A stretch of DNA of 64,000 bases from Candidatus Gottesmanbacteria bacterium (GCA_963714095.1 OY970230.1:6206-70205); one strand, 5' to 3'; positions 54,583 through 59,446 are shown, counted from the stretch's first letter. Notes: a model not told the origin generated them from the sequence alone. Made by a program: numbers and translations.

Positions 54583-54732
54583 TTGTACCCCGCTTGTCCT
54601 GAATTTCCAACAATTATTTATGACAGGGACATATTTTCAAGCAAATATTCGTTCAATGTTGCTAAAAAAGAGTTTTTAGTTTAAATAGAACATGCGTTTT
54701 CATTTTTGCGATATATTGTTTATAGTTAAGTT

Positions 54733-55656
54733 ATGGGAGAACAACCGCCTATTGCTCCGCCGATTCAGGAAATAACGCTGTCCGAACCGATCTTTTATCC
54801 TGGAATAGCGAAAAATACGTTATTATTTCATGGAACTCGGAGTCAGGAAAAGCTCCAACAAATCTTAAAGCAGGGTCTTAAACCACCGGACGAAGCAATT
54901 TCACGCGATACCCTGGCAAGAAGAATAAGTTTTTGTGACGCCGAGCGTTATATCGGCCTGGGAGATGGTGCTATTATCGCATTTAAACCCCGCAAAGAGG
55001 AAGTTTCACCAAATAATCCTCATTTTGCCCGAACTCAACAAATAGCGCTTGGTATAAATCACCTGCCTCCTGAAAGAGCTATTTTTTATATTCCCGGACG
55101 TTCTCGACTTCCGCGAACACTGTTTGATTCCATGAAACAAGCGGTTACCGATTATTATATGCATGGTTTTAATAAGGAACCTCTTGTAAATTCGTTACAA
55201 GATATGGTCGTCATAGCAGAAAGGCAATTAACGCAGGAAGCGGTTTTTGTGAGCACAAAGCCAGTAGATACACATCAGGTAGCACATGAACTTGTCTGGA
55301 ATGAATTATGCGGACGATTAACCCACGATTATGATGATGTCGAATATAATACGACACTCATAAGTAAACTGAGAGAGAAAGGCGAAATATCTTCGACGGG
55401 GCAATTAGTACAATTGATTCATGAAGATAACGATTTTAATACTTTTGATCCAACAATATATTTAAATCTTGTCAAATTACTTTCTACAGTTGACACGATT
55501 AACGGCTTGGGTTTTGAAGATATTCCGTATCAGCTAAACGAAAATGTTGTTGCAACAAGAAATTGGATAAGTATACTCCCCGAGAGTGTACAAGAGGCCC
55601 AGCCGGTGTCACCGAGAAATACCTTACGTAGACTGCTTAATAGGTTTAAAAGATAA
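54733..55656 (+). CDS. ADP-ribosyltransferase-fold protein (Tpt1/KptA- and PARP-like H-G-T signature) with a C-terminal domain of unknown function
   Basis: LLFHGTRSQEKLQQILKQGLKP followed by RRISFCDAERYIG and GAIIAF. Compare KptA LYHGTASRFLDEIKKQGL...RHYVHLSADE...PVILTV and PARP HGSRTTNFAGILSQGL...GIYFAD. The ART core sits at the N-terminus (residues about 25-130), followed by about 170 aa with no motif. Confidence 0.5.
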   Translation: MGEQPPIAPPIQEITLSEPIFYPGIAKNTLLFHGTRSQEKLQQILKQGLKPPDEAISRDTLARRISFCDAERYIGLGDGAIIAFKPRKEEVSPNNPHFARTQQIALGINHLPPERAIFYIPGRSRLPRTLFDSMKQAVTDYYMHGFNKEPLVNSLQDMVVIAERQLTQEAVFVSTKPVDTHQVAHELVWNELCGRLTHDYDDVEYNTTLISKLREKGEISSTGQLVQLIHEDNDFNTFDPTIYLNLVKLLSTVDTINGLGFEDIPYQLNENVVATRNWISILPESVQEAQPVSPRNTLRRLLNRFKR

Positions 55657-55727
55657 GAAAAATAATGTCTTTCATCATTCGAGGCTAATATGTTGATATA
55701 AAGCCTATAATATGATACCATCACCTG

Positions 55728-56114
55728 ATGTTTTTCAAAGGAGAGCAACCCAATCCGTTTAGATATGATTTTGTTCCCAGAGTCAATTGTATTGGGTATG
55801 TGTACCACGAGCTTAAAATCGACCCGAAAGAAAAATTTAGAGATCCGGGGTTATTAGAGTCGCTCCTGAAAGACTTTGATGAAGTACCCGATGTCACGCA
55901 AGCACAGGCGGTAGCTGTTGTTTACCCACTGGAGGATGGCAGTCTCTTTGTTGACCACTGTGCGATCATAGAGGATGCAGGAAAAATGACAATCCGGCAC
56001 AGAGCAGGAAAAAATGCTGAAATCCGGCCTGATACCTTGTCAACAGGACTAGACTTCTATCTCAAGGCCAACAAAAGAGCCAAAAAGGTTTTTCTTACCA
56101 GAAAAGATCAATAA
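55728..56114 (+). CDS. Hypothetical protein with His...Cys context (possible permuted papain-like/LRAT-like fold)
   Basis: 128 aa with YVYHEL and VDHCAIIED. Lies 71 nt downstream of the ART-like gene on the same strand. Confidence 0.3.
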   Translation: MFFKGEQPNPFRYDFVPRVNCIGYVYHELKIDPKEKFRDPGLLESLLKDFDEVPDVTQAQAVAVVYPLEDGSLFVDHCAIIEDAGKMTIRHRAGKNAEIRPDTLSTGLDFYLKANKRAKKVFLTRKDQ

Positions 56115-56190
56115 TGTTGTTAAATAATAAAGTCTTACCTTTTACACGATCTCAAACAGATACTCTTTATGTTGCCATAGCTTCGTATTT

Positions 56191-56726: not shown

Positions 56727-58712
56727 ATGTCCTCCCTTGGGATTATGGGGGGATTTTTTATGGCAGGTTGCATTCAGGAAAAAAGTTATCGGGAATCATA
56801 CGAATCAGAAACAGCTGCAGTAAAACAATCATTTTCATATTTTTCTCCACATGACGTACGTGTTGAGGTGGCGCGCCGTTTTAAAATTCGATATGCCATA
56901 GATCATGCTAGTGAAACGAAAGATATAACTCCAACAGAAGAAGTGACTGAGAGTATTTCATTCACACTTCAAAATGGTCAGATTTTTTATCCAACCTATG
57001 GTGAACACGGAACCTACCTTGACTCTTTGCATCAAAATCAAAAAAACCACTCTGATACATACTCTCTATCGGATCACCAGACATCACGTCTTGCGGAGGA
57101 GGCATTTCGCAATGGCGCAACAAAAGCAGTATTGTCGTACGCAAGAGAGGGTGAGGCTAATCGGGACCTTCTCGTGATGACATATGATCCTAAAACTAAA
57201 GAAGGAAAAACATTTGTGGTGAATACTGCTTTAGATGGAAAACAACATTCGTATGACGCAATTATTGCAATTGGACAAAAACTATTTGAAAATTTGTCGC
57301 TAATTCAACCGACAAATACTTCTGCAATTTTGACAGATACCCTTCTTTCTTCTGACCATGCCCGTGAAGCGGTTACACGTCTGACGTTGGACTCCGAACG
57401 GATTATTTCGCAAACTCCCTACACGCATCCTGTATCCGAACGTCTCATTCCGGATTCAGTTACAACCGTAGAATATTCGGCAATAAAAATTGCTGGGGAT
57501 ATCCGTGAAACATGGGTTGATATCCGCGATTTCTTCAACCGAAAATTGTATGAGAATGAGAAGAAACGTAGGCAAGATATATTGCTACCCGAGTTTGGGC
57601 TACAAATAGAACAAACTCAGTCGGGGGAACAGAAAGAGCAATTACCGACAAAAGGAGACGTACAAACTGCTATTGTAATTCTTTCTGAACCACGATTGTT
57701 AACCCTCAAAGAACCGTTCGCGATCATAGGTGTACTTTTTGCACTTGATACAATTGCAAATACACAGGAATCTGTTCATGCGTTAGAGGAGAAAGAACAA
57801 CCACAACTAACAGATGATGATGTAGAAACTGCAATTGCGATTTTCTCTGAGCCAACACTCCTAACCCTCGAAGAACCAGTTGTAACCATAGGCATCCTTT
57901 TTGCAATCGATACGTTTGCACATATGCCGAAAGAATCCGTTCGTAAAGAAGACAGAGTAACGGGTGCTTTTGTAGCACATACAACTCGGGCAGAAAGTCA
58001 GAATGATAGGCAACAAATAGAAGTTATTCATCAAATCGGCGAGAAATTAACAGAATGCGTTATTTCTCAACATCCGTTTGAAGAAACGCTCGATATTCCT
58101 GACAGCGAGACCATGGGGTTTTTTAATCTATATCGGTTTTTTTATGGAGAGAAAAAGAAGTTGTCGCCAGAAGAACATGAGGTTCAGAAAGAAGAAGCGC
58201 GGGAAAGTATTAAACGGTTCTTGGCTCTCACCACACCGGAAGAACAACAAAAATATAAAACCCTTGAACGTTTTGCGCTTTTGTATATTGCTCTAGCGAT
58301 GCGTTTTATAAAACCGGACGAAATAATATCAAAAAAGATTTTTCATAAACTACCCCCAACTTTTTCAGAGAAGAATATACAGAAAAAACTCGAACGGGAC
58401 ATGCCGATAGCACGTTTATCCCAACTGCTGACACTGCTTTTCTTATTTTCGTATGCATCGGTGTTTGACCGATTATTTCAAAATAACAAGGATGTTGATT
58501 TGTCAGGTAAACGTGTAAAAAAGCAGAACCCGGAGAAAAATATAAGTTCGCAGCTTGAACGGACACCATGGATTTTATTATCGATCATCTGGTATCTTGC
58601 AATGATTCGGGAACAGGGGGTGCGAACAAACAGTAACCCTCAAAAAAACAAACGCAAAAAGAAAAACATGCATTCGATATTGCCCGTTTTTGGTGTTATT
58701 TTTACTTTTTGA
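56727..58712 (+). CDS. Large hypothetical lipoprotein-like protein with internal about 55-aa tandem repeats and a C-terminal TM segment
   Basis: Signal peptide/lipobox-like GIMGGFFMAGC. Two repeats (QTAIVILSEPRLLTLKEPFAIIGVLFALDTIANTQESV / ETAIAIFSEPTLLTLEEPVVTIGILFAIDTFAHMPKESV). C-terminal WILLSIIWYLAMI TM and a basic tail. Confidence 0.45.
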   Translation: MSSLGIMGGFFMAGCIQEKSYRESYESETAAVKQSFSYFSPHDVRVEVARRFKIRYAIDHASETKDITPTEEVTESISFTLQNGQIFYPTYGEHGTYLDSLHQNQKNHSDTYSLSDHQTSRLAEEAFRNGATKAVLSYAREGEANRDLLVMTYDPKTKEGKTFVVNTALDGKQHSYDAIIAIGQKLFENLSLIQPTNTSAILTDTLLSSDHAREAVTRLTLDSERIISQTPYTHPVSERLIPDSVTTVEYSAIKIAGDIRETWVDIRDFFNRKLYENEKKRRQDILLPEFGLQIEQTQSGEQKEQLPTKGDVQTAIVILSEPRLLTLKEPFAIIGVLFALDTIANTQESVHALEEKEQPQLTDDDVETAIAIFSEPTLLTLEEPVVTIGILFAIDTFAHMPKESVRKEDRVTGAFVAHTTRAESQNDRQQIEVIHQIGEKLTECVISQHPFEETLDIPDSETMGFFNLYRFFYGEKKKLSPEEHEVQKEEARESIKRFLALTTPEEQQKYKTLERFALLYIALAMRFIKPDEIISKKIFHKLPPTFSEKNIQKKLERDMPIARLSQLLTLLFLFSYASVFDRLFQNNKDVDLSGKRVKKQNPEKNISSQLERTPWILLSIIWYLAMIREQGVRTNSNPQKNKRKKKNMHSILPVFGVIFTF

Positions 58713-58891
58713 GTTAAATAAAATAGCTGCTCTACTATTTGAGGTTAAATCGAGGCTAAAATAATATGTACCCAATACTACACGATTTCGAACAGATATT
58801 TACTGGTTATAAGCCTATTTTTGAGCAAATTTTAGATAGAAGTTGCTAAAATTGTCGTACGTAGTAAAATAATCTATAGGAGGTAAGTTGC

Positions 58892-59293
58892 ATGGAAATA
58901 AATAGTAGCGTTTTAGTCAAAAGCGAAAGACAGAGAGCCCTTCATTACATCCAGACTCTTATAGAAGTAGCTAGGGAACCATTTTTGATTCTCGATGAAA
59001 ACCTTCGTGTAGTGATAGCCAATATTTCCTTTTACGAAACATTTCGGGTGGGCCAGAAAGAAACGGAGGGGAATTTTATATATGATTTGGGCAACAAGCA
59101 ATGGAACATTCCTAAACTAAAAGAATTACTGGAAGATATTTTGCCCAAAAAGAAACTGTTTAGAGATTACGAGGTTACGCATACATTTCCGACAATCGGA
59201 AAACGAATAATGGCTCTAAACGCCAAGGAAGTGGATTCAGTCCAGTTGATTATTTTGTGCTTTGAAGATATAACGGAAAAAAAGAAAGTTTAA
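58892..59293 (+). CDS. Stand-alone PAS domain protein
   Basis: PAS-like core ALHYIQTLIEVAREPFLILDENLRVVIANISFYETF. Strong RBS GGAGGT 8 nt upstream. Confidence 0.5.
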   Translation: MEINSSVLVKSERQRALHYIQTLIEVAREPFLILDENLRVVIANISFYETFRVGQKETEGNFIYDLGNKQWNIPKLKELLEDILPKKKLFRDYEVTHTFPTIGKRIMALNAKEVDSVQLIILCFEDITEKKKV

Positions 59294-59372
59294 ATTAACT
59301 TGTGAATGATACAAAGAGTCATGAACGGCGAATTTCAGTAAAACTTTTGAGACTAAATTGAGGCTGAGCGTG

Positions 59373-59446
59373 TACCCCCATCCGGATTCGAACCGGAGAT
59401 TAATGGGCTGAAAACCCACTGTCCTAGGCCGCTAGACGATGGGGGC
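59373..59446 (-). tRNA. tRNA-Glu (anticodon TTC)
   Basis: Reverse complement GCCCCCA TC GTCT AGCGGCCTAGGAC..., anticodon loop TTTTCAG, T-loop TTCGAAT, acceptor TGGGGGT-A. Confidence 0.75.

Follow-up and report, generated by a model that had tools for sequence, protein, structure and literature searches.

Organisation of the locus

We analysed a 64,000-nucleotide stretch of the genome of a Candidatus Gottesmanbacteria bacterium (GCA_963714095.1, OY970230.1:6206-70205), referred to below as the window, and in particular a block at positions 54583-59446 in which five open reading frames (ORFs) on the plus strand, here designated P1 to P5, fill the interval from a membrane protein gene to the 3' end of a minus-strand tRNA-Glu. 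The largest of the five, P4, is preceded by a cobalamin (vitamin B12) riboswitch, and riboswitch, expression platform and gene make up a single unit at 56529-58712, the only part of the block with a mode of regulation legible in the DNA, comprising:

56529-56644, plus strand: cobalamin riboswitch aptamer (RF00174, clan CL00101)
56645-56759, plus strand: expression platform, with a conserved CCCGAGCAGGAAGATAT box, a long hairpin, and a start-abutting hairpin with a U-run
56760-58712, plus strand: P4 with its corrected start, approximately 650 aa, beginning 'MAGCIQEKSY...'

The ORFs as called and the adjoining tRNA are:

54733-55656, plus strand: P1 ORF, 307 aa
55728-56114, plus strand: P2 ORF, 128 aa
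56191-56415, plus strand: P3 ORF, 74 aa, TTG start
56727-58712, plus strand: P4 ORF as first called, 661 aa
58892-59293, plus strand: P5 ORF, 133 aa
59372-59446, minus strand: tRNA-Glu (UUC, anticodon ttc), 3' end towards the block

A first-pass annotation of this DNA, made from the sequence alone, had described the block as an AT-rich accessory segment at a tRNA that looked like a self-contained module, possibly a toxin/effector or defence module. Its geometry holds for the most part: the tRNA-Glu does lie on the minus strand, its 3' end turned towards the block, all of the genes are on the plus strand, and the gaps between consecutive ORFs (71, 76, 311 and 179 nt) are as given except for the second, which had been counted as 77 nt. 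The 311-nt spacer between P3 and P4, taken at the time for a real intergenic gap, instead holds the aptamer and expression platform of the riboswitch.

The cobalamin riboswitch and the start of P4

The aptamer matches the full length of the Rfam model (positions 1-189) with a score of 36.0 bits, above the gathering score of 31.5 (local E = 1.1e-7), and lies on the same strand as P4, ending 115 nt before its start codon (ATG 56760). In an alignment of five loci the boxes of the aptamer core, GCCGCAAC and AGUCCG, are invariant, and 11 of the 25 consensus pairs remain paired despite substitutions in both partners. The platform (136 nt as folded) reaches a minimum free energy of -44.5 kcal/mol, with z = -4.1 relative to shuffled sequences. 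Its long hairpin lies at approximately 56655-56720 and is followed by a CCUCCC/GGGGGG hairpin at 56731-56752 and a U-run at 56754-56759, which directly abuts the start codon. Taken together, the aptamer match, its position and the pattern of paired changes make it very probable that the P4 gene is regulated by B12 via this riboswitch, and the presence of the riboswitch points to a B12-linked metabolic role for the largest gene of the block.

The platform hairpin is predicted to act as a terminator and/or to sequester the Shine-Dalgarno sequence. When adenosylcobalamin (AdoCbl) is plentiful, the bound aptamer would allow the CCUCCC/GGGGGG hairpin to form, which would terminate transcription and/or hide the ribosome-binding G-run and so switch P4 off; when B12 is scarce, P4 would be expressed.

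The leader also bears on where the protein begins. All close homologues of P4 begin 'MAGC...' at a Met matching position 56760, and a start at this Met is found in 75 of 79 diverse family members; we therefore take 56760 as the true start rather than 56727, where the ORF was first called. The additional residues 'MSSLGIMGGFF' are the regulatory hairpin read as codons, and the homologues have no hydrophobic segment before MAGC. The lipoprotein-like character that had been attributed to P4 was thus an artefact of its N-terminus.

The P4 family

P4 belongs to a family of about 211 clusters counted at 50% identity: an exhaustive profile search recovered 211 representative clusters at E <= 1e-3, of which 119 also pass E <= 1e-10, and a metagenome scan with the family alignment (A2) returned only close relatives. 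Family members are approximately 500-800 aa long, with a conserved N-terminal domain of approximately 210 aa, a conserved C-terminal tail ('PWxLLxIIWYLAMIREQG...GVIF') and, between them, a variable and charged region that carries a 54-aa hydrophobic repeat. The residues conserved across the family, numbered as in the 661-aa ORF, are D147 and G160, without exception, R146, in 78 of 79 sequences, and Cys15, in 63 of 79. The internal repeat noted in the first-pass annotation is confirmed, being present here as two copies, 72% identical and 162 nt apart, where homologues carry either one or two:

57648-57762 and 57810-57924, plus strand: 54-aa repeat within P4

No Pfam or NCBIfam family matches P4, and no Pfam domain was found in 70 diverse relatives. 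Searches of the PDB with shallow and deep profiles revealed no sequence relative, giving only sub-significant or low-complexity matches. The AlphaFold2 model of P4 is poor (predicted local distance difference test, pLDDT, 42), and fold matches obtained with it are consequently unreliable. We also considered whether P4 could be a polytopic membrane protein, which we rejected since most members have no 19-residue hydrophobic segment, and whether it carries the classical DxHxxG B12-binding motif, which was not found by inspection, only 'DHxT' being present.

Aptamers and neighbours of P4 homologues

DNA was recovered for 16 loci encoding members of the P4 family, the window included. In 13 of these a B12-clan aptamer lies directly 5' of the P4-family gene, 11 scoring above and two below the gathering score. 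Outside the window, the aptamers 5' of P4 homologues are:

L005: RF01482, 51 bits
L006: RF01689, 45 bits
L033: 41.9 bits
L037-L043: 45-57 bits
L004: 26.5 bits, E = 1.5e-4, below the gathering score
L044, a distant member: 38.8 bits, E = 1.4e-4, below the gathering score

A gene with a DUF4430 domain adjoins the P4 homologue wherever the contig reaches, the distant L044 excepted. In the clade with 60-69% identity to P4 it lies upstream (L006, L033-L035, L037 and L040-L043), often with a B12 aptamer of its own (L033, L037 and L040-L043). In the clade with 46-48% identity (L004, L005 and JGI contig i-4pFZyc) it lies downstream and is followed by a DUF6580 gene. This second clade and L044 have the gene order NrdR/NrdJ (class II ribonucleotide reductase, RNR), PduO adenosyltransferase, riboswitch, P4, and genes for DUF6580, PduO and NrdR-NrdJ are present in L004, L005, L044 and JGI contig i-4pFZyc. 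DUF4430 is the C-terminal domain of transcobalamins (PMC4350170), and for the bacterial SLBB proteins that resemble transcobalamins, scavenging of B12 has been predicted in organisms that do not produce it (PMC1796856). A PDB sequence search returned no solved relatives of the DUF6580 and DUF4430 neighbours, and in the literature we found nothing on cobalamin riboswitches in bacteria of the Candidate Phyla Radiation (CPR), nor on DUF6580.

Several further features of these loci were observed. The riboswitch-P4 operon extends, in L004 (12748-15543), L005 (9628-12417) and L044 (4098-6033), to a gene for a protein of approximately 140 aa, with 45% identity between L004 and L044 over the C-terminal 86 residues, and beyond it to a gene for a DUF87/TrwB/TraD-like ATPase that has a membrane segment at its N-terminus. 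For the ATPase, L004 and L044 show 74% identity, compared to only 41% for the N-terminal domains of P4. The DUF4430 gene upstream of the P4 homologue matches as two consecutive ORF pieces in L037 (256-759), L041 (2943-3446) and L042 (2068-2571), for which an in-frame stop, a pseudogene or recoding could account. In L034 (4632-5295), L035 (1-70) and L036 (1-160), the aptamers before DUF4430 and before the P4 homologue are both internally deleted, and their deletion beside intact genes suggests a loss of B12 control in this lineage. Finally, a few kb past the B12 operon, L004 (19551-20517) and L005 (17193-18643) carry a tRNA-Ile(UAU) followed by a gene of the phage integrase family, a classic island geometry that is absent from the block in the window.

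Composition and inheritance of the block

The block has a G+C content (GC) of 0.392 compared to 0.463 for the rest of the window, and no stretch of equal length (4.8 kb) in the window is as AT-rich. Its genes range from 0.366 to 0.432, against a mean of 0.458 (sd 0.040) for the 51 other genes of the window, with z-scores for GC at third codon positions (GC3) of -2.3, -0.8, -2.1 and -1.2, in agreement with the earlier description of the block genes as AT-richer than their surroundings. Codon-based coding scores for P1, P2, P4 and P5 are positive (0.13-0.19), with most other genes scoring 0.16-0.30. Genes that are just as AT-rich also occur elsewhere in the window, namely a Fic gene at 5726-6760 (GC 0.366) and a methyltransferase gene at 14210-14968 (GC 0.329). 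The former is part of an AT-rich patch at 5726-7141, made up of the Fic-domain gene and a 117-aa ORF (GC 0.331) and followed by tRNA-Leu, and the latter, a class I methyltransferase, comes directly after a tRNA-Phe/Gly/Gln cluster, so that it too is an AT-rich patch adjoining tRNA.

The closest homologues of P4 (60-69% identity) occur in loci or genomes of 31-34% GC and have a GC like that of the DNA around them, whereas P4 in the window has 40% GC (GC3 0.32) in a background of 46%, six points below its genome. In this low-GC clade the position of the gene is conserved (tRNA-Ser/Cys ... DUF4430-P4-VKOR/PyrD-NUDIX-DUF998-tRNA-Gly), an arrangement absent from the window. With its nearest relatives in genomes of 31-34% GC, P4 appears accessory and probably imported, and we propose that it and the rest of the block were probably acquired piecemeal from lower-GC relatives. 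The description of the segment as accessory therefore stands, its genes being both deviant in composition and narrowly distributed.

The genes do not appear to have travelled together. When the proteins of the block and its flanks were compared by tblastn with the recovered P4-homologue loci, only P4 was matched; L033-L036 and L044 were screened by blastn only, against the P1-P3 and P5 regions, with nothing found outside P4 and its leader. Nucleotide homology to these loci spans position 56554, inside the leader, to approximately 58720, some 8 nt past the P4 stop codon. Three of the seven homologues of P1 could be placed in context, each in a different one (beside type IV pilus genes; beside glycosyltransferases with an HTH_17 gene; and beside DUF2341/RecJ), none of which includes a homologue of P2, P4 or P5. 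The neighbours of P1 differ in every locus, so that no conserved two-gene partner was seen, and the gene following the P1 homologue in L002, considered as a possible counterpart of P2, proved on comparison to be unrelated to it. Homologues of P1 and P4 share no locus, and P2, P3 and P5 occur in none of the loci recovered. Since P1 and P4 homologues are never found together and homology is limited to the riboswitch and P4, we conclude that the block is not a co-inherited module.

The other genes of the block

P1, previously described as a protein of the ADP-ribosyltransferase (ART) fold, belongs to a rare family, with seven homologues among 5.8 billion proteins, one of them from a Woesebacteria metagenome-assembled genome (MAG). 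Its only Pfam match is to PARP over residues 28-53 and falls below significance (E = 0.028; 14.3 bits against a cut-off of 26.7), and within these residues the segment 'LLFHGT...ILKQGLKPP' aligns with 'FLYHGT...ILKEGLKPM' of Tpt1, again at sub-significant values (E = 0.17-0.6, PDB profiles). The AlphaFold2 model has a pLDDT of 76. Among seven sequences H33 (in H33-G-T), R64 and S66 (in R64-I-S66), Y73 and E90 are invariant, as are the QELVWNE and GLGFE motifs of the C-terminal helical domain. The indications for an ART fold are weak and agree across methods, and it is plausible that the N-terminal domain (approximately residues 20-125) belongs to the ART superfamily, with a Tpt1/KptA-like motif.

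P5 gives PAS-clan matches in Pfam (PAS_9, E = 9e-5; PAS, E = 2e-4; PAS_4, E = 5.6e-4) that cover the whole domain and fall 1-4 bits below the curated cut-offs. It also matches the PAS regions of histidine kinases in NCBIfam, and has no match in the PDB at E <= 0.01. P5 is probably a stand-alone PAS-domain protein, the matches behind its earlier label as a PAS protein lying just under the Pfam thresholds. As for the two small ORFs that had been proposed, P2 has positive coding potential and is an ORFan, a search of 5.8 billion proteins finding no homologue other than P2 itself, and P3 is doubtful as a gene, with a marginal in-frame score of 0.043 and no gene call on the source contig. The block genes are narrowly distributed, and none is a housekeeping gene; of the protein labels given to them earlier, that of a lipoprotein-like protein was mistaken.

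A 36-nt motif is found twice in the block:

54632-54667, plus strand: copy 1, upstream of P1
58816-58851, plus strand: copy 2, 41 nt upstream of P5

The copies are identical at 28 of 36 positions. The copy upstream of P1 contains an AGCAA...TTGCT inverted repeat overlapping a -35-like TTGCTA, and that upstream of P5 overlaps a promoter-like TTGCTA-16-TAAAAT. The motif may be a promoter or operator common to P1 and P5, or a chance match between two copies. This possible motif aside, we detected no functional link of P1, P2, P3 and P5 to P4 or to each other.

Directly beyond tRNA-Glu lies a 168-aa NUDIX-like gene (59493-59999, minus strand), followed by a gene for an MshA-like GT4 glycosyltransferase (60056-61351, minus strand). 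A thiamin pyrophosphate (TPP) riboswitch at 59984-60082 on the minus strand (RF00059; 60.4 bits, gathering score 54.3) overlaps both the final 27 or so nucleotides of the GT4 gene and the start codon of the NUDIX-like gene; the latter would accordingly encode a Nudix hydrolase under thiamin control. Among species-representative genomes, the nearest relatives of the GT4 protein are mostly from Chloroflexota/Anaerolineae (38-44% identity), the best match (50% identity) coming from an unclassified MAG, and these relatives (approximately 40-50% identity) have no neighbours in common with it and no tRNA. Given this lack of synteny with its nearest relatives, mostly Chloroflexota/Anaerolineae, the GT4 gene may itself be a foreign acquisition.

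Interpretation and alternative explanations

CPR bacteria are thought to rely on neighbouring organisms for cofactors, and many use an AdoCbl-dependent ribonucleotide reductase; to our knowledge, little has been established about the route by which they acquire B12. Our preferred explanation of the locus, to which we assign a probability of about 0.68, is that the block is a patchwork of unrelated, lineage-restricted genes, not one system, and that it includes a B12-riboswitch-controlled P4 engaged in the scavenging or handling of cobalamin. The block would have been built up in a small CPR genome gene by gene, through acquisitions from relatives of lower GC, and its location beside tRNA-Glu would be coincidental. 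P4 would scavenge or handle external cobalamin together with two partners, a DUF6580 membrane protein and a transcobalamin-like B12 binder of the DUF4430/SLBB type that is anchored in the membrane, and the cobalamin so handled would feed PduO and the AdoCbl-dependent class II ribonucleotide reductase NrdJ. For P4 taken by itself, a role in cobalamin acquisition or handling is somewhat favoured by its regulation and neighbourhood. More tentatively, and with the balance tilting the other way, the P4 family could be an undescribed and largely CPR-restricted part of a third kind of bacterial route for cobalamin acquisition and processing, in which P4, repressed by B12 and having a conserved Cys towards its N-terminus and a PAS-like domain for ligand binding, would act with DUF4430 and DUF6580 to feed PduO and class II RNR in bacteria unable to make B12.

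Several observations weigh against the patchwork with a cobalamin-handling P4. P4 lacks a Pfam domain, a solved relative and a good model, and a role for it can be drawn only from its regulation and neighbourhood. Most family members have no convincing transmembrane helix, which is awkward for a role in transport. There is no gene for DUF4430, DUF6580, PduO or NrdJ in the 64-kb window (six-frame HMM search for DUF4430; tblastn of the neighbour proteins of P4 homologues, which found only P1 and P4), which leaves the partners of P4 putative in this genome. In L034-L036, which encode one and the same protein, the aptamer is visibly internally deleted and the genes persist. No relative that shares the flanks turned up when species-representative genomes were scanned with the neighbouring GT4 gene, and the low GC of the block could in part stem from weak selection on poorly expressed genes. 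Lastly, the genes under the control of B12 riboswitches include those for B12-independent isozymes, among others, and scavenging is therefore not the sole reading of P4.

This last point underlies an alternative in which P4 stands outside B12 acquisition, as a B12-repressed substitute for, or regulator of, a B12-dependent process, for example as a sensor or scaffold with a PAS/GAF-like N-terminal domain that binds a ligand. It would fit with the established control of B12-independent alternatives by B12 riboswitches, with the small number of P4 members that have transmembrane helices, and with the operon in L004, L005 and L044 that runs into the highly conserved DUF87/TrwB-type ATPase. However, the low confidence of the P4 model makes its fold matches an unreliable guide to such a domain, and the tight and repeated pairing of P4 with DUF6580 and with a DUF4430 gene of the extracellular B12-binder type argues for uptake; we regard this alternative as rather unlikely. 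Alternatively, the block may be ordinary vertically inherited DNA, fast-evolving and specific to its lineage, with a low GC resulting from weak expression or from a relaxation of selection. This explanation would accommodate the abundance of orphan genes in CPR genomes, the in-frame codon scores of the block, which are positive and rather low compared to most other genes of the window, and the scatter of other AT-rich genes across the window. It sits less well with the nearest P4 homologues, which match the GC of their surroundings where P4 here does not, and with the absence from the window of the synteny seen in the low-GC clade, and we consider it unlikely, if the least so of the alternatives.

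The reading of the block as a tRNA-Glu-targeted island with a self-contained toxin/effector or defence module, consisting of an ART toxin and accessory proteins, is in our view improbable. It draws on the position of the block against the tRNA 3' end, on its being the lowest-GC 4.8 kb of the window, on the rare or orphan nature of its genes, and on one P1 homologue that adjoins an excisionase-like HTH_17 gene. However, Pfam and NCBIfam scans found no integrase, recombinase, mobility or phage gene in the block or the flanking genes, in agreement with the genes called on the source contig. When the window was searched with two probes of 22-23 nt from the 3' part of tRNA-Glu, allowing up to three mismatches, the only match was the tRNA itself; the direct repeat of the tRNA end that the first-pass annotation had suggested looking for near 54.5-54.7 kb thus occurs nowhere in the window, and a repeat finder likewise gave no boundary repeat. 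None of the five block proteins is matched in PADLOC, and their PHROGs matches amount to noise; no neighbour of P1 is conserved across its three other contexts; and the largest gene is controlled by a B12 riboswitch and is chromosomally syntenic in its own clade. The first-pass proposal of such a module is thus not borne out, either by attachment repeats and mobility genes or by defence-system matches and co-occurrence.

The locus has some wider implications. Overlooked in the first-pass annotation, the cobalamin riboswitch connects a fairly large family of uncharacterised proteins with the B12 metabolism of CPR-type bacteria, and offers a mechanistic handle, independent of annotation, by which the P4 family, together with the DUF4430 and DUF6580 genes, may be placed in the B12 economy of the CPR. 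The locus also illustrates that leader RNAs can pass for real intergenic gaps or for lipoprotein-like N-termini, and that an AT-rich patch adjoining a tRNA is not by itself an island.

Comparison with known systems

Like tRNA-targeted islands, the block adjoins a tRNA 3' end, has a GC below that of its genome and is made up of accessory genes; unlike them, it has no integrase, no duplicated tRNA 3' segment and no mobility or phage genes, and its gene set is not co-inherited elsewhere. P1 resembles Tpt1/KptA in the strand/helix motif aligned above and differs in having no counterpart to the N-terminal winged-helix lobe of Tpt1, while its 180-aa helical C-terminal domain, unique to the seven-member P1 family, sets it apart from both Tpt1/KptA and other ART proteins.

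The closest parallels to the riboswitch-P4 unit are with B12 scavenging operons (btuB/btuFCD, ECF-CbrT, BtuM, and BtuG/BtuH of Bacteroides) and with transcobalamin-like SLBB/DUF4430 proteins. P4 differs from the components of the former in matching no known transporter or binder family (in Pfam, NCBIfam or the PDB), in having no signal peptide and few convincing transmembrane helices, and in standing alone in the window, where its partner genes are missing. It differs from the latter in not being an SLBB protein and in having no DUF4430 gene anywhere in the window. What it shares with the scavenging operons is a cobalamin-clan aptamer in the 5' leader, with a predicted off-switch hairpin and U-run at the start codon, and, in its relatives, an operon that encodes a small polytopic membrane protein along with a putative extracellular binder of B12 (DUF4430/SLBB) and that adjoins an adenosyltransferase and an AdoCbl-dependent enzyme. 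As for the transcobalamin-like proteins, SLBB/DUF4430 genes lie adjacent to, or in one operon with, the homologues of P4, some of them preceded by B12 aptamers of their own.

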